From Mesotaenium endlicherianum (taxonomy: Eukaryota), in assembly GCA_009602735.1 (NCBI GenBank), contig WELA01002297.1, positions 62,001 to 126,000 on the forward strand: a DNA stretch of 64,000 nucleotides, in the 5' to 3' direction. Below, piece by piece: positions 783 through 61,930 of the stretch; within the stretch, counting starts at the first letter, position 1; each line of letters opens with the position of its first letter. Made by a program: the position numbers and the translations under genes. The notes under the pieces were generated by a model. That model was not told where the DNA came from and did no database searches. It saw only the letters and a program-made list of their open reading frames with translations.

Positions 783-1369
783 GACACCTAGGGATCTGAA
801 AGAGAGTCCCTTTCAGTTGAGAACGGCATCGGGACAGGTAACCAAGTCGTGTGGAATTACTCGCAAGCCTGTGAAGATCAAGTAAACTCGGAGAAACCTG
901 AGGAGGCGTCACTATGGATGGAATGCACAGTAACTGATGCAGAGAATTATGATATTCTCCTGGGGACAGAAGCACTGATTCCGTTGGGCATGGTTATTGA
1001 TCTGCGGAAGCAGAAAGTGACCTACCAGCAGACAGATAAGCTGTCAGCTGGAGAGATTCCTGTAAAAATGGTTTATTCAGGAGAAACAGATCAGAAGATG
1101 AAGGACCGCTGCGCCACTACTGACTATCCAGACGCTTACAACATTCATATGATAAGCGAGGAGACGGCCTACACCCGCATGAACATGCCAGCGCCATTGG
1201 TGTGGCAATCCAGAAGTATGAGTCAGCTGGAAACTGTGAGCAACATGGATCGCAGTCCGCAAAATTGCTTCCAGTGCCTTATCCAGTGACAAGCTCGTTG
1301 AACTTGATGCCAGGAGTGGAGCCATTGCCTCAAGCTACTGTTCAAATGGCGAATCCGTTTCGTGAAACT

Positions 1370-2320
1370 GGAGTGGTGGTGCTGGAGTTATTCGCTAGAT
1401 TGGGATCTGGGACTATGTCTCTGATTCAGCGTGGGATCAAGGTATCTTAAGTCATCCATGTGGACAACGATGACAACGCCTTTGTGGCTTTCAAAACTGC
1501 TATGAAGGAGATGCAAGAGATGTACCATTTCAAGAATTAGGTGCCTCCGCCACAGCACATAGAGCGCATAGCTGGAGAAGATATTCTGGAGGTGAAGCTT
1601 GAGCACTTGTATCTTTACAAGTTTGATTGGATCTTTGCTGGATTCCCTTGTCAGTCTTTTCCTCAAGCTGGCAACAGGAGGAGATTCAATGACCCACGGG
1701 CACAGCATTGGGGAAGAATGGTGGACATCATCGGGCTGCTGCGGGAACGTCAGCGTCGCCATCGACCAGTGTTTGTGATTGAGAACGTGCACGCGGGTCA
1801 TGATTACAGCCAGGAGAGCCATGGCTGATTTTTGATTCGACATTGGGTCATCACGTGCTGATCAATGATGCCAAACATGGAGGGCTATCACACAGGGCCA
1901 GGATATTTTGGACAAATGGCATACCTATGGAGGTGGTGAGAGCCGTGGAGATGATTACCAGGCGCCCACTGGATGCCAAGACCGTGGAGTATGTACTAGG
2001 GCTATTCACTAAGCTAGTAACCATAGAAGATGTTTACCCACGGTGTGCTGTCAATGAGCCAGGGCAACCCAGGGTGGTGTTGCCTACCTTCACAGCATTC
2101 CCAGAGTCTCGAGCTTTTATCAATGGAGGACCAGGAATGGTCAGAGACAAAAACAATCCGGAAGCATAGTGGCGTGAGCCAACCGCCATGAAGAAAGGAT
2201 GCTGTGTGGGAGTTCCGGAAGGAGTTGTTCAAGCAATTCTTACTGCTGTGAAGCAGTTAGAAGCTGCAAAGATCTTCGGTAATATGATTGGGCATCACAC
2301 CATGACATGGCTCATAGAGA
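1370..2320 (+). pseudogene. C5-cytosine DNA methyltransferase domain of copy A (stops and frameshift)
   Basis: Motifs VVLELFARLGSG (I), IFAGFPCQSF (IV), FVIEN (VI), SHRARIFWTN (VIII), KIFGNMIG (X) are spread over ORFs 1202, 1541, 1843 and 2188. Confidence 0.9.
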
Positions 2321-4616
2321 TTATTATGACGTGGCAACAACTGACTTTCACCCACAAGCCTATGCCAGTGCCACCAGATGTGATAATTGGAGAACAAGTG
2401 GTACCTAACTCAGACCAGAGAGCTGGCAGGAGAGGACAACTGCCAAAGGAAGGACTCCCAGAACGCAGAAATGCGGAAGGAGGAGTTCAGAGTACCAGAG
2501 CTGCACGCAAAGAAGTCGGGATGGCTGAATTGACAAGGTGCAGTGAAGTGAAGAAGCGGCTGGAAAACCAGATCGCAAAGGTAAAAGCACTTTTTGAAGA
2601 AATAGATGGGCCTATGGAAGAGCAGGCGCCTCACGCAACGATACCACCGCCAGGTGTGGAAGGTAATACGTCGTCTTGGCTGAAAAATGCCACGCGTAGT
2701 CAAATATTTGGGACGTCACCGCCAGGAATGGCCGCAGCAGAGGAAGACAATATGCTTCTTCCTCTGGTTGAAGAAGAGCAGGATTATCAACTACCCTCAT
2801 CAGCTGCAAATGATCCTTCAGTCTCCACACCTTTCTTCACGGATGGAGAAGAGGCACATGGGGAAGATGGAGGACAACTATTTAGTGAGGAAGTGGAGCA
2901 AAAGCTTACACCAGCAAGCGCTAAGGGTAAGGCGCAAGTTCTTGAGAAGGCATCTGAGCAACAGCAAGTATCATCAGATTTGGATATGGCCATCATATTT
3001 GAGGGCTCACTGAAAAGTTAAGGTCCAGAGGAGGATCTTGATTATAGCTCAAGGGCAAGAGGAGAAGGTGACTATTGGCAGGAGGACTCGTGCAGTTGGG
3101 AAGATGGACAGCAATGTCTATCATCCTGTCCAGAGCTTGGAAGCAACTACTATGGAGCAGACTCAGAAACAGGGGAGATCCATCGACGGCACAAAGAGCC
3201 CTCTTTGGAACCAGCACATCCAGACAATTATTCTGGAGCACTAGAGAAGACTGAAGATTATTTCAACTGGGTACCAGAGGAGTCCTGTGGAACCAACCCA
3301 GCTTGCAATGAGCAAACATGCTATATGGGAGAATGGGCTGAAGAAGCTAGTGAGAAGCCAGGTGACTCTGGAGGGTCTGCAAAAACCATATGCTTGGAGG
3401 TGATCATTGAAGATCGCAAGGAATATCTGGACAAGAAATTTCCCAGGACTTTCTTGCTGAGTCCAGAGCCAAAGGTCAAAGAACAGCCAAGAGGATCAGC
3501 CACTCATACTGCTGAGTCTATCACCAGGCAGATTATGGAGCAGCTGCTGGGAGCAGATGCACACCAGCGCAAGGAAGAAGAGGTCGCCCAAGCAGCACAA
3601 GCGCTGCAGTCAGCCATCATGAACATGGCAAAGCTTAACACAGAAAGCGATGAAGAGCCACTGCCACCAGGAGTGGAGGGGACAGAGGAGGCCGAGTTAG
3701 GACTGCTTGACCTACCTGAGTTTGATTTACCATCGCTCACTCTTGCAGATGATGAAGGGGAAGACATTCCTCGCTTCCCTACTCCTGAATTGGACCTACA
3801 GGACCTGAGAACAGACGAAAGGGTGGCAAACCATTGGAACGTGGAGGGGCCGCACCCAGCTGATTTATATCAGGAGTTATGCTCGCCAATATCCAGCACG
3901 CAAATCGCAAGTATATCAATCTCTGAGATACCACCATTGGAGCTGCAACGGCTGCCACCCAAGGTATCTGCTTGCGTTGCTAAGATGGTACATCAGGTAA
4001 GCCACAAGGCTGCGCAAGCAGGCCAAAGAAAGTGGCCCGTGAGGGAAATGCACCCTTCAACAGGATGGTGATGCGTTATTTTATGCATCGAAGAGTGGCC
4101 CAGAGGGAAGGAGTTCCGAGAGGAACTATGGTCCCACCGCCACAACCCATTATGGAAATACTGCGGAAGGAAGGTGAAGAAGGGTTGATCCGCAGGGCCC
4201 GAGAATTGGGAATTAACATTCCTATGGTTCATACTCCAACCTTTGGTGTGAGGGGAAAGAATGATTCAGCTCCTGCAACACCAGCGGTTTTTGAGAAAGA
4301 ATTGGTGGAGCTAAGAAGCACTATAAGCCGCCTGACAATAGAAAATGCTGTGTACGCGCAAGTTGCTGAAGCACAACGACAACAGTCACTGAGTCATCAG
4401 TCATGGGCTATCTTGCCTCTACTTGGAGAAGAGTTTGGTACAACGGTCGAGCGCCTTGATACAATAAATCAACACTAGGGATGGTCCATCACCCCCAGAG
4501 TTGACCCAGCAGGATGGCCACTAGAGAATCCTCGTCCACAGCGAGAGCTAGGAGGGACAGGCACCAGCTGGACTGCAAATGATAAGCGAAGATTCCAGCA
4601 GCTGCCCATTAAGAGG

Positions 4617-5361
4617 TGTAATGAATCAGTATATTAGTAGATATAATATTCATTTAAATGTGATAGTTAATTCAGTTCAGCCTGCTAAACTTTAGTTGGT
4701 AGTCAGTCTGCTGAACTTTAGTTAATAATCAGTCTGCTGGACTTTACATAATTATCAGTTAAATGACTCGGCTAAAAGCAGCAGGCTGAAGTCAACTAAA
4801 GTCAGCTTGCTGACACATTCTTTGACAGCCAGCTGACTTCCGTGCTCGGTAGCAGCGAACTGCCTTGATATGCATCTAAGTACCACCTGCTAGATGAATG
4901 GCCAGATGACATCCCCATGATGGATGGCTATTCGGGATGATGGGAGATGGCGGTGGATTTGGTTAACCGAGGTCCTACCAACGTGGTTAACTCCCGGGTA
5001 GGCGGTGCCATCGCACTGACCGTTGAACAGTAAACTCATTCCATGTACATATGCTAGGCATTGCTCTCGAGTTCGGCATTCAGAAACGAGGCCAACTCTC
5101 TTGTACAGCTTACTGAGAGAACTCTGAATCCAAGGCGAGAAGCCATTGATACGCACTGTCTTCTAACCTTGCTTATGTATGAGTTTACTGATTTGCATCA
5201 TTGATGCTAGTTTACTCGCATTTGACTTACGAGTATTACTCCCTGCTAGTGTATTGTCCTTTGCCGTTTAACTAGTTAACGGAAGTACCATAAAGATTAC
5301 TTGCTGATATAAAGATCTTTATTAATTGTTAATCGCCTATTTGGTAAGTCGATTCATTTCA
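4617..5361 (+). mobile_element. Solo LTR (family L1) with 5-bp TSD AGAGG
   Basis: TG..CA ends; AGAGG at 4612-4616 and 5362-5366. Removing it restores colinearity with copy B (~39810-39825). Confidence 0.95.
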
Positions 5362-5624
5362 AGAGGCGTTTGGTATTTTCTGACCCATCAAAGAAGCGTA
5401 GATCTATTTCCAAGGAAAAGCGACTAAAGAAACGGGCGACAGAGCCTAAGCGACAGGAGGAGCAAGCAGAGAAGCCTGCTGCCTCTCCACCCTGCAATCA
5501 GGCTGAAAACCTTGAGGGCCACGATGTGGGCAAAAAGCCCCCACCTGAACCCAAGAAGTAGCAGCTACTGGATGCTTTTGTTGGGGAGAAGCAGCCTGAA
5601 ACTGAGATTTTAACCATTGGGAAA

Positions 5625-8590
5625 ATGGTCTCAGCCCAACAAAGAGCACAAGTTGAAAGGCTGCTCAAGAAGCACCGCAAGGTGTTTGTTTTTACTAAGA
5701 AGAAGATTGGCAGACCCACTGCCTGTGTGTGTGAAATCACGCTAACTACGCATAACCCAGTCAGACTTGGGCCGTATAAGCTCAGTCAGGCAAAATGGGA
5801 CTGTTCGGAGAAAACCTGCCAGGAGTTGCACAAACTCCGCATGATTGAAAAATCAACTTCAGTGCATGGGGCTCCCACACTAGTAGTCGCCAAGAAGGAC
5901 GAGGCTGGCAACTATACTGCCACTCGTATGTGTGGAGATTACAAGTGACTGAACCTCCACACGGAGCCAGACAGCTATGTGATGCCTACGCCAGAGCGGA
6001 TGTTTGCGATTGCCACCACCGGGAAGGTGTTTAGCATCACCGATCTGCGCCAAGGCTTCAACCAGATTCTTGTGAAAACAGAACATCAAGGTAAGACCGC
6101 TTTCTGGGCTTAAAGGGAACTTTGGCAATGGACAGTAATGCCATTTGGGTTGAAAAATGCCCCTGCCATATTTCAGAGGACAATGGATAAAGTGCTGGAG
6201 GGGCTGGATTTTGCAAAACCATACATTGACGATGTGATGGTGTTCAGCCAGTCCATTGAGGAGCACCTCGAGCACTTGGAACAAATGTTCCAGCGTCTGG
6301 AGAAATTCCAGAGACTCTACATCCAGGAAAGTGTAGGTTCTTTGAGGCACACGTGCCCTACTTAGGACATGAGATTGGGAACAATGCTATGTCCCCTCAG
6401 AATGTAAAGATTGAGGCCATTTTCAAGATACGTGAACCTGCGAATGTGTCCAAGCTTAAAGCTCTTCTAGGGCTGAGTGGATTTTATTGCAAGTTTGTGA
6501 AGGACTATAGCAGAATTGCTAAACCCTTGACAGAAATCCTGAAAAAGGACGTACCTTTTGTGTGGACAGAAGTCCAAGAGAAGGCCATGAACGAGCTTAA
6601 AGAGAGGCTGGTGACAGCCCCAGTCTTGCAAACGCCTGACTACTCTAAGCCGTTCAACCTGCACACTGACTGGAGTCGTGTAGGAATTGGCGCAGTACTC
6701 ACTCAAGCTGCAAGCCCAAGGGAGGAGTACGTCATTGCCTATGCATCTCGCTCTAACAACCGAGTCGAGAGCAACTATTTGTCCTATGAAGGAGAGCTGC
6801 TGGCAGTGGTTTGGGCTGTTACACATTTCAGAGAGTATCTTTGGGGAAGACCTTTCTCGCTGATTACAGATCACTCGCCATTACTTTGGCTGATGAAGAA
6901 TGGAGATCTTACCGGCAAGCTGGCTCGCTGGGCTCTTAAGCTTCAGGAGTATCAGATGACGGTGGTGCACCGAGTAGGTGTACTCAACAATGACGTCGAT
7001 GGACTTAGCAGGAACCCAGACCCATCTTCAGAAAACAGAAGCTCAAGAAGACAAAGACCCGATCGGCCCAGCAGAGTTGGCAGCTTGCCTAGCCGAAATG
7101 GCTGAAATGGCAGCGTCAGGTGAAGCTGAGCCTCTACCCCTGTTCAGTCCAGAGATCTGGAAAGATCAAGCCACTATGCACTGGCTGAAATTAGGGACCC
7201 ATCTCGAGGGACTATCACTGAAAGAAAAGGACCAAGTAAGTCATCGCGCTAAAAGGTTTTGCTGGAAACGCAATTACCTGTTCGGAGTTGAAGAAATTGG
7301 ACAAGAGAAGGTCGTGCCAGAACCTACCAAGAGACGAGCTCTCGTGCAGGAAATGCATGAAAATACTGGGCACTATGGTGTCAAGAAGACATATAGTCTT
7401 CTGTCGCTGTCTTACTGGTGGAGGGGTATGAAACAACAGTGTGAAGATGTGATCAAGGCCTGTCAAAGCTGTGATCGCGTCAAGGCTGGTTTTACACAGC
7501 AACATCCACACCTGCAACCTTTGCCAATCATGTGCCTAGGCTATCGCTGGAGCTGCAATCTCGCAAGTGAGCTACCGCTGTCCAAGCAAGGTAACAAGTA
7601 TATCATGGTCATGATTGAGCATTTTTGTAAGTGGATAGAGGTCGTTCCTCTAACCGCTAAGGAAAGCTTAGGGACTGCGGAAGCACTCCTTAACCATGTG
7701 ATTGTGCGTCATGGAGCTCCAGCAGAAGTGCTGACAGACCAAGGGTCTTAGTTCCAAGGGTCGTTTCAAAAACTCTAGGACAAATTCTTCATTGATCATT
7801 GCACTACGTCAAGAGACCACCCGCAAGCAGATGGTCTAGCAGAACGGATGGTGTAAATTATGAAATATGCTTTACGCAAGTTTTGCCTTGAGCATGACAA
7901 GCGAGATTGGGATCCGGCCCTACCATGGCTAGTTATGGGCTACAGAATCAGCAAGCAAGCAGCTTTGGCGAATTACTCGCCATATCAGATTTTGTTTGGA
8001 AGAATTCCAGTTGTACCCAGCAGCATCAAGCAGGAAATTGAACAGGTGAAAAACCTGGACGATCCTGATGAGTTGTTAAAGGTGATGGTACGCCGCAGAG
8101 CGCTATGTGAGCGCATGATGCCTGCTGCGCTGGACAACCTGAGAATTGCGCAGAAAAGAGACACGCAGCGTTACGCCAGGACGCGAGATGGGAGCTACCG
8201 CTTGCAAATGACGCAGATCCAGGAAGGAGACTTCGTCTACCGCAAGCGCCAGACCAAGACCACCATCGACACCAGTTCAGGTGCAGTGATCTCGCGCGTG
8301 AAACATGCGTTTGACAATGGTGTGTTAGAACTGGAAGGTTCTGATGGCAAGATCATGAGAGATTACGTGCAGAACTGCTCGCTGTGCCGTTTGCCAAATA
8401 TTGATCCTACGATTAGGATTGTGCTTGAGGAATAAGTGCCAGCCATGCCTTGTGTCAGTTGCAAAGTGCTGGATGATCAAGAAGCAATGGTAACTTGCGA
8501 TAAGTGTGGTGCCCGTTGGCACACTTTCTGCGTTGGTGAAGAAGAGATTATGGCAGGACATTGGGAATGTCCTGACTACATTCTTGAAAC
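5625..8590 (+). pseudogene. pol of copy A: RT, RNase H, DDE integrase, C-terminal PHD finger (fragmented)
   Basis: MPFGLKNAP..YIDD; LHTDWS..SYEGELLAVVWA..TDH; H-x4-H..CxxC; VLTDQGS..HPQADGLAER; CVSC..CDKC..HTFC..WECPD at ~8445-8580. Confidence 0.93.
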
Positions 8591-8662
8591 CCCTAGCTGC
8601 TGAACCAGGAGATAAGAAGCTTTCAGCAAAAAGGCAGGGAAGCCTAAGTTGAAAGGGAGGGG

Positions 8663-10404
8663 TGTAAGGGAGACTGAAGATAAGCAAACTTATTAAAAAT
8701 TTCTATTAAGCATGAAGAATGTTGAAGAGATGAAGTGGTTGAGTGGGAAGCACTAAACGTTTGGATGCTGCACTTGCATGATCAGGTGGAGGAGGACCAG
8801 AAATGAGTCCACACCAAAGAGTCTGCCACCAACACACGTGCAAAGGTCGATCAACCCAGGGGATTTCTCACGTGCAGAGACGCACCGACACATCGACCAG
8901 GTCGAAGGCACACGTGCTGAGAAGCTATGCACGTGCCAAGGGTTCGACACTGTTAGGCACGACAGCTGTCGCGACTGCTATCCGTTTGACGGTGCCGCAC
9001 GCGCAGCGCTAGTCACGGCCGCCCAGGTACGGAAAGTCAGCACTGACTCACCGACCAAAGATAGACTTCAGGTCAGCCAGCGGTCAAGTCAACGTCATGA
9101 TCACCGAGAGGTGGTCATGGCATGTCAGTCCCCACACCCAGCGATGGGAAGGGATTTGCCAAGAAGGACTGCCAAAAGGCTGTGGGCGAGAAGCAGCCCC
9201 GAGTGCCAAGTCAGGCACGATGTGATTGGCTATGAAAACCGCCAGTCACCAGCCAAATAAGCACAACGACTGGCTGAAAGGCTAAGCAGTCACGCGCGAC
9301 AGTCGCGAGGCTTGCATGCAAGCTGAGTGACAATAGCTAGATTAGTTTGAAGAGCTGCTAGGCGAGGACGGCATGCAAAGCCAGCTGTGACTAAGCACTG
9401 GTATTCTCGAGAGAGAACAATGTGTGGTGCCTGCGAAAGGCACGAGTTCTGCGCAAAGATGCCTCATCCTTGCGTTTGTAGCTTTTGCTAAAGAAGCAGA
9501 AAGGAGAAAGAAGGAGCGCGAAGAGAAGGAGTTCCCAAGGGCGCAAGAAAACGGAGAATCCACGCCACTGCGGACACCTGAAGATCTCTTGGCACTATAC
9601 CATAGAAGTTAGAATTCAGGAGTTCCCAAGGTGGAATCTCACTGGTAGACAGAGGAGAACTTGCAGAACAGAATCTATTAGGAGATTAGCGCAGATTTGG
9701 ACAGAACACCACAAGTGTGCGAAGGGCATATAAATGGTGAGTAACTGTGTCAGTCCTAAGTTCTCAGAAGTCGCGAACAAGTCAAATTGCTGATAGCAAG
9801 AGCAGTTAAACAATTAAAAGCTCTCAGTGAGTAAGTGAGTGAGCCTAGTCTAGCAGTGAAGAACTGCTGAGGCGCGGTAGTGAGCGAAGAGTTCAAACCA
9901 GGCCAGCATAGATGTGCAGTTTCAGAGTTTTGTAAGCTGAGACTTGTGAAAGTTAAGCGAAAGCCGTGCAGGCGATTTCCTCTGAATCTGGCATTGTTTG
10001 TTAAGCTGCTTAGACGTGATTTCTGCAAACTACAAATTTGTTCATTCTGTTACCCCCAACTTGGGCATAAGCCTATCTGGAAGTAAGACTCTTCCGTCCT
10101 ACTGTAAGGAAGACTGAAGATAGACAAACTTTTTAAAAATTTATGTTAAGCATGAAGAATGCTGAAGAGATGAAGTGGTTGAGTGGGAAGCACTTAACGT
10201 TTGGATGCTGCACTTGCATGATGAGGTGTAGGAGGACTAGAAATGAGTCCACACCAAAGAGTCTGCCACCGACACACGTGCAAAGGTCGATCAACCCAGG
10301 GGATACCTCACGTGCAGAGATGCACCGACACATCGACCAGGTCGAGGGTACACGTGCTGAGAAGCTACGCACGTGCCAAGGGTCCGACACTGTTAGGCAC
10401 GACA
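8663..10404 (+). repeat. Split terminal repeat block B-A-B of copy A
   Basis: A 302-bp B segment occurs twice (8663-8964, 10103-10404) around a ~1.14 kb A segment. Palindrome CGACAGCTGTCG at 8960-8971. Confidence 0.92.
9729..9771 (+). promoter_or_regulatory. TATA box and predicted transcript 5' end (self-primer) in segment A
   Basis: TATAAA at 9729-9734. AAGTTCTCAGAAGT at 9758-9771 is the reverse complement of the sequence that follows the 5' A segment in copies B and C. Confidence 0.7.

Positions 10405-28699: not shown

Positions 28700-28729
<30 letters not shown>
27698..28729 (+). pseudogene. Chromovirus gag (one in-frame stop at 28289-28291)
   Basis: PKPEVYTG..AGAWY..QFQP; PVPMELG; CCHC knuckle CYSCGKLGHLARDC. 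Confidence 0.9.
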
Positions 28730-32271
<3,542 letters not shown>

Positions 32272-32427
32272 NNNNNNNNNNNNNNNNNNNNNNNNNNNNN
32301 NNNNNNNNNNNNNNNNNNNNNNNNNNNNNNNNNNNNNNNNNNNNNNNNNNNNNNNNNNNNNNNNNNNNNNNNNNNNNNNNNNNNNNNNNNNNNNNNNNNN
32401 NNNNNNNNNNNNNNNNNNNNNNNNNNN
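32272..32427. other. Assembly gap (N run)
   Basis: Run of N covering the PPT and the start of the 3' LTR. Confidence 1.
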
Positions 32428-35400
32428 ATTTTTGTGGTCATTCTGATATAACGTTCATCGAATTTGCTCAAGTATTGAGAGAGTTATGGATTTCCGAAGT
32501 TTAATTAGTTTTGAGGTCGGTTGACGACTGTCCTTAATTCGCGGTGAGCGCGACCGTCGGATTGACCGACAGCGTCGAGCGATCTGGCCCGTTAGAATGA
32601 ACTCGAACCTTCACGTAAGTTCGGCTGACGCGGAGTGCCGACTAGGTCGATTTACCTAGAAGTTTCGGTTTAGCCTAGCGCGTCTAAGATAGAATATTCT
32701 AGTAATGTCGATGCATGTATGTGGACGTCAATTCGGCCCGACACGTCAGATTAGACTGATCTGGCTTTCTCACGAATAATCTGGAAGGGACGATTTGACG
32801 AACACTTAGGAAAATCCGTAGCTTCCTCCTAGGGAGGAGCACTTAGGCAGAAAATTATAAATAGGCATAACTTCTTTGTTTCTTATTAGTTTTCACTTCT
32901 GTAAACTCCTACGGGTTTGTAATGACAAGGCCTTTCATCCCACATCATTTGTGAGCAGTTTCATGCCACTCAAAATGTCAAGTAATTTTCCTAAGCTTTC
33001 TTAGCAATATGCCGCTGCACTCTTGAGTATGATTGCAACTAGATTTGTTCCTCGTGAGTCACTACGCTTCCACTTGGGCACTCTGCCCCTTTCATCTTGG
33101 GTCGTCAGCCCGCTCAGATGTCTCGCTATGTCGTGGACTCTGGCTTGAATCAAAGCCTTCCACAGGCTCCACGGGATGATAGAGTCTCCCACTCCTCAGC
33201 CGCATATACAGCTGAGTTTCCCCGGGTCCCCTTCCAGGTTGACCACCGGCAAACCTTACAGGTCTCAATCCCCAATTTGCTTGGGAATTCTTGTTCACCT
33301 GAACCAATCAACAAGTTCTCAGAAGTAGGACGGAAGAGTCTTGCTTCCACATAGGCTTACGCCCAAGTTGAGGGTAACAAAATGAACAAATTTGTGGCGT
33401 ACAGAAATCACGTCTAAGCAGCTTAACAAACAATGCCAGATTCAGAGAAAATCGCCTTCGCGACTTTCGCTTAACTTTCACAAGTCCCAACTTACAAAAT
33501 CCTAAAACTGCACATTCATGCTGGCCTGGTTTGAACTCTTCGCCCAACACCGCGTCTCAGCAGTTCTTCACTGCTTGGCTAGGCTGACTCAGTTCTTCAC
33601 TGAGAGCTCAACTGCTTTACTGCTCTTGCTATCAGCAATTCGACTTATGTGCGACTTCTGAGAATTTGGGACTAACACAATTACTCACCATTTTATATGC
33701 TCTTCGCAAACTTGTGGTGTTTTGTCCAAATCTGCGCTAATCTCCTAACAGATGCTATTTTGCAAGTTCTCTTCTGTCTACCAACGAGATTCCGCCTTGG
33801 GAACTCCTGAATCCTAACTTTATATGGTACAGTGCAAAGAGATCTTCAAGTGTCGGCAGCCGCGTGGATTCTCCGTTCTCTTGCGCCCTTGGGAACTCCT
33901 TCTCTTCGCGCTCCTTCTTCTTTCTCCTTTCTGCTCCTGCGCTCCTTCTGCTTCCTTAGCAAAGTTGTGCACGCAAGAATGAGGCAGCTTCGTGTAGGAC
34001 TCGTGCCTTTTGTAGGCACCACACATTGTTCTCTCTCAAGAATGCCAGTGCTTAATTACAGCTGGCCTTGCATGCCGTCCTCACCTAGCAGCTCTCAACT
34101 CATCCTAACACTGGTCACTTAGCTTGCATGCATGCCTCGTGACTATCGCGCGTGACTGCTCAGCCTTTTGGCTGGCAATTGTGCTTATATGGCTGGTGAC
34201 TGGCTGCGTACTCGTGGATCCAGCCAAATTGGCATTTGACTCCTCTACTGCATCTCGGCAATGACTTGGCTTGCATAGCCAATCACATCGTGCCTGACTT
34301 GGCACCCTGGGCTGCTCCCCGCCCATAGCCTTCCGGCTGACCCTTTTGACAAATCCCTTCCCATCCCTGAGTGTGGGGACTGACATACCATGACCACTTC
34401 TCAGTGACCATGACGTTGACTTGCCCGCTGGTTGACCTGACATCAGCCTTTGGTCGGTAAGTCAACGCTGACTTTTTTGTACTTGAGCGGCCGTGAGTTG
34501 CGCTGCGCGTGCGGCATCGTCAAACGAATAGCAGTCGCGACACCTTTTTTCTTGTGCAAAAGGACGTTAGTGATGAGATCATAGTGAAAGGTGGCAAGAT
34601 GTACATGGCGTTTGGGGATGTGAAGGATAAAAACAGAGTTAGCATTGACATCAACACCATGTATGAGAGGGTGGGGCATTATTGGACGTACAAACTTAGA
34701 AAGGATGGTGGAAGGTATCCGAATACGGCTTCTGTCCTTCTGCACATGGTGAAGTCAGGGAAGTATTATCCTCGTACCCACCATATTACACAAGGCGGCA
34801 GTGTCGTGCCTAACAGTGTCGGACCCTTGGCACGTGTGTAGCTTCTCAGCACGTGTGCCTTCGACCTGGTCGATGTGTCGGTGCGTCTCTGCACGTGGGA
34901 AATCCCCTGGGTTGATCGACCTTCGCACGTGTGTCGGCGGCAGACTCTTTGGAGTAGACTCATTTCTGGTCCTCCTGCACCTCATCATGCAAGTGCAACA
35001 TCCAAACGTTTTAGTGCTTCCCACTCAACCACTTAATCTCTTCAGCATTCTTCATGCTTAACAGAAGTTTCAAAAAGTTTGCCTATCTTCAATCTCCCTT
35101 ACAAAGACGAAAGAGTCTTACTTCCACATAGGCTTATGCCCAAGTTGAGGGTAACAGAATGAACAAATTTGTAGTTTGCAAAAATCACGTCTAAGCAGCT
35201 TAACCAACAATGCCAGATTCAGAGAAAATCGCCTTTACAACTTTTGCTTAACCTTCACAAGTGTCAGCTTACAAAACTCTGAAACTGCACATCTATGCTG
35301 GCCTGGTTTGGTCTCTTCGCTCAATACCGCGCCTCAGCAGTTCTTCACTGCTTGGCTAGGCTCACTCAGTTACTCACTGAGAGCTTTAACTGTTTAACTG

Positions 35401-36522
35401 CTCTTGCTATCAGCAATTCGACTTGTTCGCGACTCTTGAGAACTTAGGATTAATACAGTTACTCACCATTTATATGCCCTTCGCACACTTGTGGTGTTCT
35501 GTCCAAATCTGCGCTAATCTCTCAACAAATTCTATCCCGCAAGTTCTCCTCTGTCTACCAGTGAGATTCCACCTTGGGATCTCCTGAATTCTAACTTCTA
35601 TGGTATAGTGCAGAGAGATCTTCAGGTGTCGGCAGTGGCGTGGATTCTCCGTTCTCTTGCGCCCTTGGGAACTCCTTCTCTTCGCGCTTCTTCTCCTTTC
35701 TCCTTTCTACTTCTTTAGCAAAAACTACAAACGCAAGAAGGAGGCAGCTTTGTGCAAGACTCGTGCCTTTCGCAGGCACCATGCATTGTTCTCTCTGGAG
35801 AATTCCAGTGCTTAGTCACAGCTGGCTTTGCATGCTGTTCTCGCCTAGCAGCTCTCGAACCAATCTAGCCATTGTCACTCAGCTTGCATGCAGGCCTCGT
35901 GACTGTTGCGCGTGATTGCTTAGCCTTTCAGCCAACAGTTGTGCTTATGTGGCTGATGACTGGCGGTTTTCATAGCCAATCAAATCGTGCCTCGGGGCTG
36001 CTTCCCGCCCGCAGCCTTTCGGCTGACCTTCTTGGCAAATCCCTTCCCATGCCATGACCACCTCTCAGTGATCATGACGTTGACTTGACCGCTGGCTGAC
36101 CTGAAGACAGTCTTTTGGTCGGTGAGTCAATGCTGACTTTCCGTACCTGGGCAGCCGTGACTAGCGCTGCGCGCGTGCGGCAGCGTCAAAAGGGTAGCAG
36201 TTGCGACAGCTGTCGTGCCTAACAGTGTCGAACCCTTGGCACGTGTGTAGCTTCTCAGCACGTGTGCCTTCGACCTGGTCGATGTGTCGGTGCGTCTCTG
36301 CACGTGGGAAATCCCCTGGGTTGATCGACCTTTGCACGCGTGTCGGCGGCAGACTCTTTGGAGTAGACTAATTTCTGGTCCTCCTGCATCTCATCATGCA
36401 AGTGCAGCACCCAAACGTTTTAGTGCTTCCCACTCAACCACTTCATCTCTTCAGCATTCTTCATGCTTAACAGAAGTTTCAAAAAATTTGCCTATCTTCA
36501 ATCTTCCTTACACCCCTCCCTT

Positions 36523-39500
36523 TCAGCTTAGGCGTCCCTGCCTTTTTGTTGAAAGCTTCTTATCTCCTGTTCTGCGGCTAGGGGTTTGAGGAAGGCTGTC
36601 AGGACATTCCCAACGTCCTGCCATAATCTCCTCTTCACCAACGCAGAAAGTGTGCCAACGGGCACCACACTTATCGCAAGTTACCATTGCTTCTTGATCA
36701 TCCAATACTTTGCAACTGGCAGAAGGCATGGCCGGCACTAATTCCTCAGGCACAGCCCTAACCGTAGGACCAACATTCGGCAAATGGCACAGCGAGCAAT
36801 TCTGCACGTGATCTCTCATATTCTTGCCATCAGAACCTTCCAGTTCTAACACACCATTGTCCAATGCATGTTTCACGCGCAAGATCACTGCACGTGAACT
36901 GGTGTCGATGGTGGTCTTGGTCTGGCGCTTGCGGTAGACAAAGTCTCCTTCCTGGATCTGCGTCATTTGCAGGCGACAGCTCCCATCTCGCGTCTTAACG
37001 TAACGTTGCGTGTCTCTTTTCTGCGCAATTCTCAGGTTGTCCAGCGCGGCAGGCATCATGCGCTCAAATAGCACCTTGCGGCGTACCATCACCCTTAACA
37101 ACTCATCAGGATCGTCCAGGTTTTTCACCATTTCAATTTCCTGCTTGATGCTGCTGGGTACAACTGGACTTCTTCCAAACAGAATCTGATATGGCGAGAA
37201 ATTCGCCAAAGCTACTTGCTTGCTGAAACGGTAGCCCATAACTAGCCATGGTAGGGCCAGATCCCAATCCCGCTTGTCATGCTCAAGGCAAAACTTGCGT
37301 AAGGCAGACTTAATAGTTTGCACCGTCCGTTTTGCTAGACCATCTGCTTGCGGGTGGTCTCTTGATGTAGTGTGATGATTAATGAAGCATTTTTCCAAGA
37401 GTTTCTAAAAAGACCCTTGGAACTCAGACCCTTGGTCTGTCAGCACTTCTGCTGGAGCTCCATGACGCACAATCACATGGTTAAGGAATGCCTCCGCAGT
37501 CCCTAAGCTTTCCTTAGCGGTAGAGGAACGACCTCTATCCACTTAGAAAAATGCTCAATCATGACCATGATATACTTGTTACCTTGCTTGGACAGCGGTA
37601 GCTCACCTGCGAGATCGCAGCTCCAGCAATAGCCTAGGCCCATGATTGGCAAAGGTTGCAGGTGTGAATGTTGCTGTGTAAAACCAGCCTTGACCATATC
37701 ACATCTTTGACAGTCCTTGATCACATCTTCACACTGTTGTTTCATACCCCTCCACCAATAAGACAGCTCTAGAAGACTATATGTCTTCTTGACACCATAG
37801 TGCCTAGTGTTTTCATGCATTTCCTGCACGAGAGCTCGTCTCTTGGTAGGTTCTGGCACGACCTTCTCCTGTCCAGTTTCTTCAACTCTGAAGAGGTTGT
37901 TGCGTTTCTAGCAAAACCTTTTAGCGCAATGACTTACTTGGTCATTTTCTTTCAAGGATGTCCCCTCCAGATGGGTCCCTGTTTTCAACCAATGCATAGT
38001 GGCTTGATCTTTCCAGATCTCTGGACTGAACAACGGTAGGGGCTCAGCTTCACTTGACGCTACTATTCCAGCCATTTCGGCTAGACAAGCTGCCAACTCT
38101 GCTGAATTGCTCGGGTCTTTGTCTTCTCGAGCCCCTGTTCGGTCCTCTGAAGATGGGTCTGGGTTCCTGCTAAGTCCATTGGCGTCATTGTTAAGTACAC
38201 CTGCTCGGTGCACCACCGTCATCTAATACTCCTGAAGCTTAAGAGCCCAGCGAGCCAGCTTGCCGGTAAGATCTCCATTCTTCATCAGCCAAAGTAATGG
38301 CGAGTGATCTGTAATCAGCGAGAAAGGTCTTCCCCAAAGATACTCTCTGAAATGTGTAACAGCCCAAACCACTGCCAGCAGCTCTCCTTCATAGGACGAA
38401 TAGTTGCTCTCAGCTCGGTTGTTAGAGCGAGATGCATAGGCAATGACGTACTCCTCCCTTGGGCTTGCAGCTTGAGTGAGTACTGCGCCAATTCCTACAC
38501 GACTCCAGTCAGTGTTGAGGTTGAACGGCTTAGAGTAGTCAGGCGTTTGCAAAACTGGGGCTGTCACCAGCCTCTTTTTAAGCTCGTTCATGGCCTTCTC
38601 CTGGGCTTCTGTCCACACAAAAGGTACGTCCTTTTTCAGGAGTTCCTGTCAAGGGTTTAGCAATTCTGGTATAGTCCTTCACAAACTTGCGATAATATCC
38701 ACTTAGCTCTAGAATAGCTTTAAGCTTGAACACATTCGCAGGTGCAGGTATCTTCAAGATATCCTCAGTCTTTACAGCCTGAGGGGACATAGCATTGTTC
38801 CCAATCTCAAGTCCTAAGTAGAGCACGTGTGCCTCAAAGAACCTACACTTTCCAGGATGTAGCGTCATCTGGAATTTCTCCAGGTGCTGGAACACTTGCT
38901 CCAAGTGCTCGAGATGCTCTTTAATGGACTGGCTAAATACCACCACATCATCAATGTATGGTTTTGCAAAATCCAGTCCTTCTAGCACTTTATCCATTGT
39001 CCTCTGAAATATGGCAGGGGCATTTTTCAACCCAAATGGCATTAGTGTCCATTGCCAAAGTTCCCTTTGAGCCCAGAAAGCGGTCTTAACTTGATCTTCT
39101 GTGTTCACAGGGATCTGGTTGAAGCCTTGGCGCAGATCGATGATGCTGAACACCTTCCCGGTGGTGGCAATTGCGAAGATTCGCTCTGGCGTAGGCATCA
39201 CATAGCTATCTGGCCCCTTGTGAAGGTTCAGTCGCCTGTAATCTCCACACATACAAGTGGCAGTATAGTTGCCAGCTTCGTCCTTCTTAGCGACTACTAC
39301 TGTGGGAGCCCAATGCACTGAAGTTGATTTTTCAATCATGTGGAGTTTGTGCAACTCCTGGCAGGTTTTCTCCACACAATCCATTCTGCCTGACTGAGCT
39401 TATGCGGCCCAAGTCTGACTGGGTTATCCGTAGTTAGCGTGATTTCACACATACTGGCCGTGGTTCTGCCAATCTCCTCCTTAGTAAAAGCAAACACCTT

Positions 39501-39554
39501 GCGGTGCTTCTTGAGCAGCCTTTCTACTTGAGCTCTTTGTTGGGCTGAGACCAT
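36523..39554 (-). pseudogene. pol of copy B: RT, RNase H, DDE integrase, PHD finger (fragmented)
   Basis: ORFs 39336, 38578 (YIDD), 38223, 37908, 37503 and 36523 (HPQADGLAKRTV..CDKC..HTFC..WECPD). Confidence 0.93.
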
Positions 39555-41546
39555 TTTCCCAATGGTAAAAATCCCAGTTTCAGGCTGCTTTTCCCCAACA
39601 AAAGCGTCCAGTAGTTGCTACTCCTTGGGTTCAGGTGGGGGCTTTTTGCCCTCATCCTGGCCCTCAGGGTTTTCAACTTGATTGCTGGGTGGGGAAGTAG
39701 CAGGCTTCTCAGCTTGCTCCTCCTGTTGCTTAGGCTCTGCTGCCCGTTTCTTCATTCGCTTTCCCTTGGAAATAGACGGACGCTTCTCTGATGGGTCGGA
39801 AAATACCAAACGCCTTCTGATGGGCTGTTGCCGGAATCTCCGCTCATCGTTTGCTGTCCAGCTGGTGCCTGTTCCTCCTACCTCTCGCTGTGGGCAAGGA
39901 TTCTCCGGTGGCCATCCTGCTGGGTCAACTCTGGGGCTGATGGACCATCCCCAGTGTTGATTTATTGTAGCAAGGCGCTCGACCGTTGTACCAAACTCTT
40001 CTCCAAGTGGTGGCGTGATGGCCCATGACTGATGACTCAGCAACTGTTGTCGTTGTGCTTCAGCAACTCGCGCGTACACAGCATTTTTTGGTGTCAGGCG
40101 GCTTATAGTGCTTCTTAGCTTCACCAATTCTTTCTCAGAAACCGCTGGTGTTGAAGGAGCTGAATCATTCTTTCCCTTCGTTCCAAAGGTTGGAGAACGA
40201 GCCATAGGAATGTTAATTCCCAGTTCTCGGGCCCTGCGGTTCAACCCTTCTTCACTTCCTTCCGCAGTATTTCCATAATGGGTTGTGGCGGTGGGGCCAT
40301 AGTTCCTCTCGGAACTCCTTCCCTCTGGGCCACTCCTCGATGCTTAAAATAACGCATCACCATCCTCCTGAAGGGTGCATTTCCCTCGCGGGCCACTTTT
40401 CTTGGCCTGCTTGCGCGGCCTTGTGGCTTACCTGGTGTATGCTCCATCTTAGCAACGCAAGCAGATACCTCTGGTGGCAGCCGTTGCAGCTCCAATGGTG
40501 GTATCTCAGGGACTGATATACTTGCGATTGGCGTGCTGGATGTTGGCGAGCATAACTCCTGATATAAATCAGTTGGGTGCGGCCCCTCCTCATTCAAGTG
40601 GTTTGCCACCCATTTGTCTGTCCTCAGGTCCTGTAGGTTTAATTCAGGAGTAGGGAAGCGAGGAATTTCTTCCCCTTCACCATCTTCAAGGGTGAGCGAT
40701 GGTAAGTCAAACTCAGGTAGGTCAAGCAGTCTTGACTTGGCCTCCTCTGTCCCCTCCACTCCTGGTGGCTGTGGCTCTTCATCGCTTCTTGTATTAAGCT
40801 TTGCCATGGTGATGATGGCTGACTGCAGCGCTTGTGTAGCTTGGGCGACCTCTTCTTCCTTGCGCCAGGGTGCATCTGCTTCCAGCAGCTGCTCCATAAT
40901 CTGCCTGGTGATAGACTCAGCAGTATGACAGGCTGATCCTCCTGGTTGTCCTTTGACCTTTGGCTCTGGACTCAGCAAAAAATTTTTGGGCAATTTCTTG
41001 TCCAGATCTTCTTTGCAATCTTCAATGATCACCTCCAAACATATCTTTTTTGCAGACCCTCCAGAGTCACCTGACTTTTCACTGCCTTCTTCAGCTCATT
41101 CTCCCATATAGCATGTTCGCTCATTGCTTGCTGGGTTGGTTCCAAAAGACTCCTCTGGTATTCAGTTGAAATAATCTTCAGTCTTCTCTGGTGCTCCAGA
41201 ATAATTGTCTGGATGTGCTGGTTCCAAAGAGGGCTCTTTGTGCCGTCGATGGATCTCCCCTGTTTCTGAGTCTGCTCCATAGAAGCTGCTTCCAAGCCCT
41301 GGACAGGATGATAAACATTGCTGTCCATCTTCCCAACTGCTCGAGTCCTCCTGCCAATAGTCACCTTCTCCTCTACCCCTCGGGCTATAATCAGGATCCT
41401 CCTCTGGACCTTCACTTTTCAGTGAGCCCTCAAATATGATTGCCATAACCAAATCTGATCAGACTTGCTGTTGCTCAGATGCCTTCTCAAGGACTTGCAC
41501 CTTATCCTTAGCGCTTGCTGGTGTAAGCTTTTGCTCCACTTCCTCA

Positions 41547-43235
41547 CTAGATAGTTGTCCTCCATCTTCCCCATGTGCCTCTTCTCCATCCCTGAAGAAA
41601 GATGTGGAGATCATTTGCAGTTGATGAGGGTAGCTCATAGTCCTGCTCTTCTTTAGCCAGACAAATAAGGATTTTGTCCTCCTCTGCTGCTGCCATTTCT
41701 GGCAATGGCGTCCCAAATATTTGACTGCGCGTGGCCTTTTTCAGCCAAGATGACGTATCACCTTCCACACCTGGCGGTGGTGTCGGTGCGTGAGGCGCCT
41801 GCTCTTCCATGGGCACATCTATTTCTTCAAAATGTGCTTTTACCTTTGCAATCTGGTTTTCCAGCCGCTTCTTCACTTCACTGCACCTTGTCAATTCGGC
41901 CATCCCGGCTTCTTTGCGTGCAGCTCTGGTACTCTGAACTCCTCCTTCCGCGATTCTGCGTTCTGGGAGCCCTTCCTTTGGCAGTTGTGCTCTCCTGCCA
42001 GCCCTCTGATCTGAGGTAGGCACCACATGTTCTCCAATTATCATCACTGGTGGCTCTGGCATAGGCTTGTGAGTGGAAGTCAGTTGTTGCCATGTCATAA
42101 TAATTTCTAGGAGCCATGTCATAGTATGATGCCCAATCATATTGCTGAAGATCTTTGCAGCTTCAAGTTGTCCTACAGCACTCACAATTGCTTGTACGAC
42201 CCTTTTTGGAACTCCCAAACAGCATCCTTTCTCCATGGCGTATGGCTCACGCCATTGTGCTTCTGGGTTATTTTTGTTCTTGACCAATCCTGGCCCTCCA
42301 TCAACAAAAGCTCTGGACTCTGGGAATGCTGTGAAAGTCGGCAAAACCCCCCTGGGTTGCCCTAACTCATTGACAGCACACCGTGGGTAAACATCATCTC
42401 TGGTTACCGATTTAGTGAATAGCCCCAGTCTATACCCCACGGTCTTGGCATCCAGTGGGCGCCTGATGATCATCCCCGTGGCTCTCGCCACCTCCATAGG
42501 TATGCCATTTGTCCATAAAATCCTGGCCATGTGTGATAGCCCTCCATATTTGGCATCATTGATCAGCACGTGATGACCCAATATTGAATCAAAGATTAGC
42601 CATGGCTCTCCTGGCTTCATCTGGCTGTAGTCATGACCCGGGTGCATGTTCTCAATCACAAACACTGGTGGATGGCGACACTGACGTTCCCGCAGCAGCC
42701 TGATGATGTCCACCATTCTTCCCCAATACTGTGCCCGTGGGTCATTGAATCCCCTCCTGTTGCCAGCTTGAGAGAAAGGTTGACAAGGGAATCCAGCAAA
42801 GATCCAATCAAACTTGCAAAGATACAAGTGCTCAGGCTTCACCTCCAAAATATCTCCTCCAGCTATGCGCTCTATGTGCTGTGGCGCAGGTACCAAATTC
42901 TTGAAATGGTACATCTTTTGCATATCCTGCATAGCAGCTTTGAAAGCTGTAAAAGCATTGTCGTCGTTGTCCACATAGATGACTTTGGATACCTTGATCC
43001 CCCGCTGAATCAGAGACATAGTCCCAGATTCCAATCCAGCGAATAACTCCAGCACCACTACTCCAATTTCGCGAAACGGATTCGCCATTTGAACAGTAGC
43101 TTGAGGCAATGGCTCCACTCCTGGCATCAAGTTCAACGAGCTTGTCACTGGATAAGGCACTGGAAGCAATTCTCGCGGACTGCGATCCATGTTGCTCATA
43201 GTTTCCAGCTGACTCATAATCTTGGGTTGCCACAC
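41547..43235 (-). CDS. Retrotransposon-encoded C5-cytosine DNA methyltransferase (domain ~42110-43065 uninterrupted)
   Basis: VVLELFAGLESG, IFAGFPCQPFSQAG (catalytic PC), FVIENM, SHMARILWTN, WREPYAMEK..LG, KIFSNMIG in canonical order within one 562-aa ORF. Confidence 0.93.
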   Translation of the reverse strand: MWQPKIMSQLETMSNMDRSPRELLPVPYPVTSSLNLMPGVEPLPQATVQMANPFREIGVVVLELFAGLESGTMSLIQRGIKVSKVIYVDNDDNAFTAFKAAMQDMQKMYHFKNLVPAPQHIERIAGGDILEVKPEHLYLCKFDWIFAGFPCQPFSQAGNRRGFNDPRAQYWGRMVDIIRLLRERQCRHPPVFVIENMHPGHDYSQMKPGEPWLIFDSILGHHVLINDAKYGGLSHMARILWTNGIPMEVARATGMIIRRPLDAKTVGYRLGLFTKSVTRDDVYPRCAVNELGQPRGVLPTFTAFPESRAFVDGGPGLVKNKNNPEAQWREPYAMEKGCCLGVPKRVVQAIVSAVGQLEAAKIFSNMIGHHTMTWLLEIIMTWQQLTSTHKPMPEPPVMIIGEHVVPTSDQRAGRRAQLPKEGLPERRIAEGGVQSTRAARKEAGMAELTRCSEVKKRLENQIAKVKAHFEEIDVPMEEQAPHAPTPPPGVEGDTSSWLKKATRSQIFGTPLPEMAAAEEDKILICLAKEEQDYELPSSTANDLHIFLQGWRRGTWGRWRTTI

Positions 43236-43429
43236 AATGGCGCTGGCATGTTGATGCGGGTGTAGGCCGTCTCCTCGCTGATCATATAGTTGTTGTAAGC
43301 CTCTGGATAGTCAGTAGTGGCGCAGCAGTCCAGCATCTTCTGATCTGTTTCTCCTGAACAAACCATTTTTACAGGAATCTCTCCTGCTGGCTGCTTATCT
43401 GTCTGCTGGTAGGTCACTTTCTGCTTCCG

Positions 43430-45855: not shown

Positions 45856-45862
45856 TCAACCG

Positions 45863-45876
45863 AAGTTCTCAGAAGT
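45863..45876 (-). promoter_or_regulatory. Self-priming primer-binding site (Tf1-like)
   Basis: ACTTCTGAGAACTT directly follows segment A and is complementary to the sequence ~29 nt after the TATA box in A (46205-46218, one mismatch; exact in copy A at 9758-9771). No TGG tRNA-type PBS at the boundary. Confidence 0.75.
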
Positions 45877-60439: not shown

Positions 60440-61930
60440 TGTCGCGACGGACAGCCAATTTACTGTTTCACACACATGAGAGAAGTCATGTGGCGCCCAA
60501 TACGGACAGTCAACGGCTGACCCATCGACTACACCTTGCTGACATGTGCAGTCAACGCCAAACGTGAGTCCTCACACGTATAGAGTGAGAACCAACAGAA
60601 ACAAGTCCCGACACCTAGAGATGGGTTGGCATTGACGAGCCAGGTCAGCCGTGGGGCTTCCCTCGGTAAGGCTAGCATTGGCCATGCCAAGAACTCCGAA
60701 GTCGGGAAAAGTTGAGGCAAAAGGCCACCTCAGCCCAGGGTCCATTGGCGTCGATGCCATAATGGCACGACCACGCCATGGAGTGTGGCCTTGAAACTCA
60801 CGTCAGCGTGGGCACTGACCGAGAGGTTGAGCAGTCACGCGCGATGCTTACGAGGCAAAGCGCACATGACCTTTGACTCGACATAAGTTAAGCTTAACGC
60901 TAACTTTGAGGCTATAAGTGCATTCGGGTGCTTGAGTACAGCACGAGCAAAAAGCACTTCACCCTCATTTTTGCTCTCATTTTTCGAAAACGAGAAGAAA
61001 GGAAGAGGAGGAAGAAGGAGGCGAAGAAAGGAGAAGGCGCAAAGGAGGAGTTCTCAAGGCCACAAGAGGCCCGAGCAGGTATGCTTCCGCCTGCGTTTGA
61101 AGACCTCTGCTTCCATTCTGCAACGCTTTGTATGTTAGAAGTCAAAATTGAGGAATTCCTATAGAGAATTGCCTCCAAGAAAAGATAAAATTTGCAGATA
61201 AAATGTGTTAGGAGATTCTAGTGCATAATCAGGACGAACACCACAAGCGTGCAAAGAGCACTTATAATGGTGAGTTTTGTGTTAGTTTCTAAATTCTCTG
61301 AAAACGCAAATGTCTAACTGCTGAATGCAAGAGCAGATGAAGGGAAACTCTAAGTGAAGAACTAAGAAAGTTCAGCTTGCAAAATCGGCAAGCGCGGTTA
61401 AGAGCAAGAGGCTCAGCAAGACCAGCATAGGGTTGCTAAATTCGAAGATTTGTAAGCTTAAGCTCTTAACAGTGAAGCAAAAGTCCGCGTGGGCGATTTT
61501 CTCTAAATCTTGATTTCTTTGTAAAATGCTTCGACGTGATTTTTATAAAAACGCTTATTGTTAATTGTGAACTTATCAACTCAGGCAGAGCCAGCTAAGA
61601 AGTCAAAGCTTTTGTCCTTGTAAGGAAATCCAAGCAAGCATAAAACTTTTTTGCCAAATATATGAAGTCTATGAAGGACAAGACTAAAGAAGATGAAGTG
61701 CGAAAAACGCTAAGATTATTAACCTAGAATTTGACCTTTGTGAGCTCGGGATGACCAGGAACGGTCAACAGATGCAATCTGCGACCGCCACAAGTGTAGA
61801 AGCCAATCATTGGTGATGAACCAGGTCGACGACTCACGTGCAAGGGCCACCGACAAATCGACTAGGTCAACAGCACACGTGTTGGCAATCTTCACACGTG
61901 CGTGTGTCACCAACATGAATAGGCACGACA
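60440..61930 (+). mobile_element. Solo A-B terminal unit of a diverged subfamily of the DNMT-gypsy element
   Basis: Starts TGTCGCGAC and ends TAGGCACGACA. Flanks TCGT/TTGT (4-bp TSD with one C>T). Internal similarity to A (CTTATAATGGTGAG TATA region) and A|B joint GTCCT|TGTAAGG at 61619. Confidence 0.82.

Follow-up and report, generated by a model that had tools for sequence, protein, structure and literature searches.

Element copies, repeat layout and ends

The 64,000 nucleotides of contig WELA01002297.1 of Mesotaenium endlicherianum analysed here (positions 62,001 to 126,000, referred to as the window throughout) carry several copies of a retroelement whose long terminal repeats (LTRs) depart from the textbook layout. 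Comparison of the window with itself resolved two repeat units, B of ~302 nt and A of ~1.1 kb. Two elements, ~91% identical and oppositely oriented, both end in B1-A2-B2. At its opposite end Element 2 starts with just A1, and the genomic layout read across all junctions is A1, primer binding site (PBS), internal region, polypurine tract (PPT), B1, A2 and B2. In both elements the exact B1/A2 joint is the same palindrome, CGACA-GC-TGTCG (CGACAGCTGTCG), placed by sequence match at 8960..8971 in Element 1 and at 36204..36215 in Element 2, as an original prediction made from the letters of the window had reported. The possible use of this palindrome in integration is the subject of this study.

The 5' part of Element 1 (783..10404, plus strand, delimited by self-comparison) lies outside the window, pushed away by a conventional LTR element that is nested in Element 1 and has its 3' LTR at 37-782. 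B1 of Element 1 (8663..8964, plus), the first part of U3, starts with TGTAAGG, ends in CGACA and contains four CACGTG motifs. The following A2 (8967..10102, plus), which starts with TGTCG and ends in ...CCGTCCTAC, supplies the rest of U3 together with R and U5, and B2 (10103..10404, plus) ends in CGACA at 10404. At the A2/B2 joint (10102/10103), the end of U5 is joined to the start of U3.

Element 2 (34802..46987, minus strand, delimited by self-comparison and Pfam matches) is complete at 12186 nt. Its A1 (45875..46987, minus) starts with TGTTG, which differs from TGTCG by one CpG-to-TpG change, and ends in CCGTCCTAC. At the other end lie B1 (36211..36512, minus), A2 (35104..36208, minus) and B2 (34802..35103, minus); the U5 end of this A2 reads GTCTT at the joint, where the element's own A1 has GTCCTAC. 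Two further copies are less complete. Element 3 is represented by its A1 (33325..34542, minus), a 5' fragment ~86% identical to the other copies; its body is interrupted by another LTR element (26994-33097), and homology stops near 25551. A solo A'B' copy (60440..61930, plus) belongs to a family ~70% identical to the main one, has an A/B joint reading GTCCT/TGTAAGG and is flanked by TCGT and TTGT.

The four CACGTG motifs of B are G-box-like. They stand at 8835, 8869, 8911 and 8930 in Element 1, within ~100 nt upstream of the palindrome, and at the corresponding positions of the other B copies. B is not found upstream of A1, so that B1-A2 and unintegrated DNA are the only places with a complete U3.

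All six element ends visible in the window correspond to halves of the palindrome from which the central GC is absent. B2 of Element 1 reads ...GGCACGACA up to 10404 and is followed by GTGT; B2 of Element 2 ends at 34802, and its A1 starts at 46987 with the TGTTG just described; A1 of Element 3 starts with TGTCG at 34542; and the solo copy begins with TGTCGCGAC at 60440 and finishes with GGCACGACA at 61930. The same six positions had been named in the original prediction, and each was recovered here. Immediately outside Element 2 lies a perfect 4-bp target-site duplication (TSD), CTGC/CTGC, with its 5' copy at 46988..46991 and its 3' copy at 34798..34801 (both minus). The flanks of the solo copy match at three of four positions, and the mismatch is of the CpG-to-TpG type.

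The 12-mer CGACAGCTGTCG has exactly two matches in the window and no other even when one mismatch is allowed, and none of 100 dinucleotide shuffles of the window contained it twice or more. An argument from the rarity of perfect 12-bp palindromes as such was considered and rejected, since the window contains 18 of them against 15.6 expected. As such palindromes are not unusual here, the significance of CGACAGCTGTCG is positional.

Its two halves are conserved as well. All five copies of B agree in their last 11 nt, and A starts with TGTCGC in five of six copies and with TGTTGC in the sixth, the ~70% family being included in both counts. The solo copy of that family retains 9-11 terminal nt on each side, along with the block of the TATA box and start site, the first bases of U3 (TGTAAGG) and three ACGTG-core motifs of B. 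We also consulted run X1, the Logan contigs of one DNA run that carries the same organism label as the window. Among the variants listed for X1, none at 10% of depth or more falls between 8945 and 8976, and those nearest to the palindrome are at 8943, 8944 and 8977. Loss of the palindrome among copies, which would have told against the original prediction, was thus not seen: the palindrome and its halves are kept across copies and families. When A.B is taken as the unit, its ends TGTCG...CGACA are of the TG...CA type, with inverted repeats matching at 7 of 9 positions. The tips expected of a conventional LTR (TGTAAGG... and ...CCTAC) have no CA on the U5 side and little inverted symmetry between them.

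X1 also allowed a census of termini beyond the window. In 77 of its contigs the match begins exactly at 8967 (TGTCG), preceded by unrelated flanks (median 255 nt, agreement 0.37), and in 32 contigs it stops exactly at 10404 (CGACA), followed by unrelated flanks (median 255 nt, agreement 0.39). At the end of A and the start of B, the X1 matches listed showed no similar accumulation of loose ends. Element ends located away from the palindrome halves, another outcome that would have spoken against the prediction, were found neither in the window nor in these 77 and 32 contigs. The summed k-mer depth of X1 reaches 60,000-212,000 within ~100 nt of the palindrome (8870-9060 and 10256-10404), compared with 120-700 in the LTR interior and ~65-95 for single contigs. 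With depth hundreds-fold higher near the palindrome, many subfamilies seem to share these termini, and the excess suggests either many subfamilies or short non-autonomous derivatives with common termini.

These data bear on the possibility that the layout did not arise by transposition but from a rearranged copy that segmental duplication multiplied, or from an artefact of assembly. The region is indeed crowded with nested repeats and contains an N gap, as would suit such an origin. However, the copies lie in unrelated flanking sequence, Element 2 is bordered by its own TSD, and the 77 and 32 X1 contigs depart into unrelated sequence at exactly the same two bases; we regard this explanation as the most improbable of those considered here.

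Searches in other data sets did not extend the family. A metagenome scan with the integrase-PHD protein returned 283 pattern matches and no relatives. A scan with the 20-nt palindrome core returned six contigs, all with chance matches of 20-23 nt and none with B-A-B repeats; one of them (L001) is bacterial (LeuRS, YchF) and another (L003) has a fungal-type domain. Scans of viral contigs with the DNA core and with the reverse transcriptase protein gave no match.

Coding capacity and priming sites

The sense open reading frames (ORFs) of Element 2 match, in order, a zinc-knuckle Gag (zf-CCHC), an aspartic protease, a DNA_methylase domain, then after ~2 kb without any match a reverse transcriptase (RT), RNase H, integrase and a PHD finger in Pfam. 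The full order of the element is A1, PBS, gag, protease, DNA methyltransferase, the unmatched region, RT, RNase H, integrase, PHD, PPT, B1, A2 and B2. The protease-RT-RNase H-integrase order of Ty3/gypsy Pol is therefore present, with the methyltransferase and the unmatched ~2 kb lying between protease and RT. The integrase gave Integrase_H2C2 and rve matches, and an HHCC zinc finger and a D,D35E core can be read across two copies. In Element 2, the region encoding integrase with its C-terminal PHD finger (36526..37907, minus) has a frameshift, a stop and one substituted catalytic residue; the corresponding region of Element 1 (6978..8435, plus) has stops and also one substituted catalytic residue. 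With both integrase genes broken, these are dead copies.

The methyltransferase of Element 2 lies in an ORF at 41550..43310 (minus) with a C5 cytosine DNA methyltransferase domain (PF00145, E = 2.6e-17). Its best matches in PDB, weak ones (E ~1e-5), are to the bacterial enzymes M.HaeIII and M.HhaI, and no close homologues were found in a large protein set. The ~2 kb between methylase and RT is rich in ORFs in both elements (39600-41460, minus, and 3022-4478, plus). Against Pfam (E <= 1), NCBIfam and PDB sequences these ORFs gave no match, and a search of the ESM Atlas with one of them yielded nothing usable.

This gene content has to be considered together with the order of the repeats. A1-B1-A2-B2 is the split-direct-repeat layout described for PAT and Ngaro elements (PMC4157794, PMC5890265), and a circular cDNA might be recombined at the B/A joint by a tyrosine recombinase or another recombinase in the manner of DIRS, Ngaro and PAT elements, with the integrase being irrelevant or a relic. 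The ~2 kb without a recognisable domain would leave room for such an enzyme. However, no match to Phage_integrase, the tyrosine recombinase family, was found at E <= 1 in 22 of the 29 sense ORFs of at least 70 aa (the other seven, outside the Pfam scan, are short ORFs overlapping others in other frames), and for the unmatched ORFs NCBIfam, PDB and the ESM Atlas were likewise of no help to this reading. In addition, TG...CA ends, a perfect 4-bp duplication and loss of the central GC are hallmarks of DDE strand transfer, and an HHCC/D,D35E integrase has been maintained at the family level. Tyrosine-recombinase elements are not known to make a TSD. Recombination of the DIRS type is thus quite improbable here, and because no recombinase was found in the ORFs scanned and a TSD is present, the window element is not a member of DIRS, PAT or Ngaro.

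The priming sites are those of an LTR element. In Element 1, the PPT GAAAGGGAGGGG (8651..8662, plus) ends exactly at the first base of B1, and in Element 2 the corresponding tract (36513..36524, minus) likewise adjoins B1, so that GAAAGGGAGGGG stops exactly at the TGTAAGG start of B1 in both. Element 2 has 14 purine runs of at least 11 nt in its 12186 nt, one of which ends at the start of B1. At the other side of the internal region, directly after A1 of Element 2, is a predicted self-primer binding site, TTCTGAGAACTT (45863..45874, minus), and the same 12 nt directly follow A1 of Element 3 (33313-33324). Inside A, a TATAAA box (9729..9734, plus, in A2 of Element 1) is present in all four main-family copies, and 29 nt after it comes AAGTTCTCAGAA (9758..9769, plus), the predicted transcript start and self-primer. 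In Elements 2 and 3, the 12 nt that come directly after A1 match its reverse complement without a mismatch. The AAGTTCTCAGAA site is located 342-345 nt from the end of A in all four copies; it is exact in A2 of Element 1 and carries 1-2 substitutions in the other three. An exact AAGTTCTCAGAA 12-mer arose by chance in 2 of 20000 shuffles.

A PBS of the tRNA type was also considered. It is unlikely, as no TGG occurs within 20 nt of the end of A, and the window contains no tRNA genes; the self-primer reading was adopted instead. By its sequence, then, the element is predicted to undergo self-primed, Tf1-like reverse transcription.

The PPT adjoins the start of B, and the predicted self-primer site adjoins the end of A. 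These positions make B.A the LTR and put the palindrome ~300 nt inside it. The placement of the palindrome within the LTR in the original prediction holds once the LTR is defined by its priming sites in this way. By the same sites, and with the predicted start, U3 comprises B plus the first ~770-790 nt of A, and R-U5 the last ~345 nt of A.

Several features by which Ty3/gypsy elements are recognised are present: TG...CA ends with a TSD of 4-6 bp (TGTCG...CGACA; two TSD pairs readable), a PPT directly 5' of U3, and a PBS, predicted and of the self-primer type, directly 3' of U5. Identical complete LTRs at both ends are not: inserted copies have A alone at the 5' end and B-A-B at the 3' end, and the LTR defined by the priming sites is complete only once per inserted copy. 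These elements are of the Ty3/gypsy type and LTR-like up to the finished cDNA, departing from the textbook only at integration.

Regeneration of the repeats and the proposed integration reaction

Informative sites were used to ask how the repeat copies are related. Among those in the B copies, eight group the copies by element, one by position and one in another way; among those in the A copies, 14 group A1 of Element 2 with its own A2, versus 6 and 3 for the other groupings. Because the repeats group by element, the layout is regenerated at each insertion, as LTRs are, rather than being a frozen rearrangement copied along.

This result also bears on a different definition of the LTR, in which A.B (TGTCG...CGACA) is the true LTR, B1 is the leftover of a tandem partial LTR, and the palindrome is a fossil LTR-LTR junction without function. 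Such a unit would have TG...CA ends and the 7-of-9 terminal inverted repeats, and a solo A'B' copy exists. However, the 5' end consists of A alone followed by the predicted PBS in both copies where it can be read, and the PPT precedes B1 rather than A2. Moreover, the grouping of B1 with B2 by element (8:1:1) indicates that B1 is remade at every insertion, and the same layout recurs in two ~91% identical elements and in a published family (PMC5890265). We consider a functionless junction of this kind highly improbable.

With B.A as the LTR, transcription of A1...A2 can supply a standard R-U5-PBS...PPT-U3-R RNA, from which reverse transcription of the usual kind would yield B.A-internal-B.A. The genomic copies are instead A-internal-B-A-B, which is a circular permutation of that product, broken at the palindrome. 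Textbook LTR elements and retroviruses integrate through the tips of a linear cDNA. In the present element, the anatomy of the copies excludes the tips of the reverse-transcription product as insertion ends. The A2/B2 joint is a U5-U3 junction of the type found in two-LTR circles, carried into the genome. In the three A/B joints available, the start of U3 (TGTAAGG) is identical, and the U5 side reads GTCCTAC in Element 1, GTCTT in Element 2 and GTCCT in the solo copy. Variation in length at one tip, in these three joints, is suggestive of untemplated end-joining.

Most likely, with a probability that we would put at about 60%, the integrase opens an end-joined and probably circular cDNA at one internal palindrome, after the CA on each strand, and thereby exposes both insertion ends. 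The following order of events could account for the copies: transcription would start in A1 and run into A2, giving an ordinary R-U5-PBS...PPT-U3-R RNA; self-primed reverse transcription would convert this RNA into a linear cDNA with two B.A LTRs, each containing one palindrome; the ends of the cDNA, U5 and U3, would be joined without a template, most simply into a two-LTR circle, and the product of this joining would be kept as the A2/B2 joint; the integrase would nick after CA on both strands of one palindrome, and with the two CA steps just 2 bp apart this would amount to a double-strand break, each end of which, with its CA-3'OH recessed behind a 5'-GC overhang of 2 nt, would resemble the 3'-processed ends of retroviruses; and concerted strand transfer at positions 4 bp apart would insert A-internal-B-A-B, with repair removing the GC overhangs. 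In this circle model, the A-internal-B-A-B layout requires a substrate in which U5 and U3 have been joined, as they are in a circle, a point absent from the original prediction.

Cleavage after CA on both strands of the internal site had been put forward in the original prediction. The anatomy supports this reading, with the cut itself and the form of the DNA that is cut both inferred. In particular, the elements encode an integrase with HHCC and D,D35E motifs, have TG...CA ends and, in Element 2, a CTGC duplication, and yielded no tyrosine recombinase in the ORFs scanned, all of which fits an integrase reaction.

The integrase might also use the palindrome halves without any free circle, with the U5-U3 joint being made in some other way. 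For instance, it might cut the palindrome in the left LTR of a linear cDNA, and the released B fragment might then be ligated to the right end; alternatively, RT might switch templates from the end of U5 to the start of U3. All of the anatomy fits a route of this kind equally well. It would also explain why A-internal-B-A-B is the only form seen (three of three informative copies in the window), and no choice between two identical palindromes would be needed. However, it takes more steps than the joining of two ends of one molecule, and a template switch predicts a constant joint, whereas the length of the U5 side differs among the three joints. We consider a route without a circle unlikely, though it is the strongest of the rival explanations.

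Several points weigh against opening of a circle by the integrase. The five steps are inferred from dead copies with broken integrase genes, and neither the circle nor its cleavage was observed. A free two-LTR circle predicts that A-B-A-internal-B should arise equally often, and it was seen in none of the three informative copies (the 3' end of Element 1, Element 2 and the 5' end of Element 3); the circle model gives no reason for this asymmetry of products, although three copies are too few to decide. The ~2 kb of coding-like sequence without a family match may hide an unrecognised enzyme. The transcript start is a prediction only, as three RNA runs gave 8, 29 and 3 reads and no places where transcripts begin or end. 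Only two TSD pairs are readable, one perfect and one matching at three of four positions, the other copies having only one end in the window. Finally, X1 is a single sample that may be the assembly's own source, which makes the contig counts a census of the same genome rather than an independent replication.

Neighbouring repeats, known systems and significance

The window contains other repeats in addition to the copies described above. A conventional LTR family of 746 bp (TGTAATG...TTTCA) has copies at 37-782, 4617-5361 and 63016-63760 (minus). The first, nested in Element 1, comes after a PPT-like GGAGGGAT and is the 3' LTR of an element whose body is off the window; the second, also nested in Element 1, is a solo LTR with a 5-bp TSD (AGAGG). 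Just 5' of the PPT of this family, at 1-19 and 63742-63760, is an inverted repeat, TGTTGTCG-AGG-CGACAACA, which holds the half-sites TGTCG and CGACA in the opposite order (the start half and then the end half). At 61931-61950, a sequence resembling the start of A, TGTCGCACTGCT..., begins 3 bases after the CGACA of the solo copy and is otherwise unlike A. A third family may have been inserted here, at or beside the terminus of another element, which would hint at self-targeting. The LTR element inside Element 3 (26994-33097) has 670-bp LTRs that are 97.8% identical and an N gap at 32272-32427. Separate from the element studied here are three more repeat pairs: 11859-13273 and 16382-17795 (78% identical, inverted), 15951-16414 and 20894-21356 (97%, direct), and 53512-54055 and 54224-54757 (82%, inverted).

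Among described elements, KnitGypsy-Dnmt3 of Klebsormidium nitens, for which the legend of Fig. 4c in de Mendoza et al. 2018 (PMC5890265) gives a DIRS-type repeat structure with Gypsy domains, resembles the present one in having a Gypsy-type Pol with a cytosine methyltransferase inside and repeats in the order A-coding-B-A-B. That paper merely remarks on the layout, and the strings "palindrom-", "target site" and "circular" do not occur in its main text (PMC5890265). Its methylase is called Dnmt3-like (PMC5890265); the methylase in the window, which may be of the same class, has its best PDB matches among bacterial C5 methylases. Full-text literature searches, with the supplements of PMC5890265 outside their scope, returned the 2018 legend and no published mechanism for the layout.

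Split direct repeats, A1-B1-A2-B2, define the PAT-like and Ngaro retrotransposons that use a tyrosine recombinase (PMC4157794). In the window the repeats follow the identical order, which means that in some intermediate of replication the two ends would lie side by side. The difference lies in the enzymes and ends: PAT and Ngaro elements encode a tyrosine recombinase, whereas the elements in the window have a DDE integrase, TG...CA ends, a 4-bp TSD, Gypsy RT and RNase H, a PPT and a PBS.

Cleavage of palindromic junctions by retroviral integrases has precedents. It has been reported in vitro at the palindromic LTR-LTR junction for the integrase of foamy virus PFV (PMC1180852) and at the palindromic two-LTR junction for a tetramer of HIV-1 integrase (PMC1905944), and the two reports agree with the original prediction in its statement that such cleavage is known for some retroviral integrases. 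In these systems, as in the reaction proposed here, a retroviral-type integrase cuts a palindrome of two viral ends to give 3'-processed ends (PMC1180852, PMC1905944). The viral palindrome is the U5-U3 junction itself, and its cutting restores an LTR-internal-LTR genome (PMC1180852, PMC1905944). In the window, by contrast, the palindrome lies ~300 nt inside each LTR and has a 2-bp spacer, the U5-U3 joint stays uncut, and the provirus is permuted.

Self-primed reverse transcription has been described for the Tf1/sushi/Tcn1 group of Ty3/gypsy elements (Neumann et al. 2019, PMC6317226). These elements lack a tRNA-type PBS and have a site adjoining U5 that is complementary to the 5' end of the transcript (PMC6317226); the window elements would resemble them in both respects if the predicted transcript start is right. 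They differ in having ordinary LTRs and mostly a chromodomain (PMC6317226), where the Pol of the window elements ends in a PHD finger.

A whole clade of LTR elements with a DDE integrase may have moved its att site from the LTR tips into an LTR palindrome, so that a two-LTR circle, opened by the integrase in the manner of a restriction enzyme, would be an obligatory precursor and the layout of DIRS and Ngaro elements would have been reached convergently without a tyrosine recombinase; we give this wider proposal even odds. Two-LTR circles are regarded as dead ends, and the use of circle junctions by integrase in vivo has been argued over since the 1980s. If the integrase does open an end-joined cDNA at the palindrome, the elements described here would be a natural system in which cleavage of an internal palindrome by a retroviral-type integrase is the normal path, and the old question of circles as integration precursors would become testable in such a system. 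It would also explain the oddity that was left unexplained in the 2018 description of KnitGypsy-Dnmt3, and it would mean that a DIRS-like repeat layout can arise from circle-based integration whatever the enzyme. Annotation is affected too: programs that find LTRs as identical terminal repeats will mis-call these elements, the termini of which seem, from k-mer depth, to be present in very many copies.

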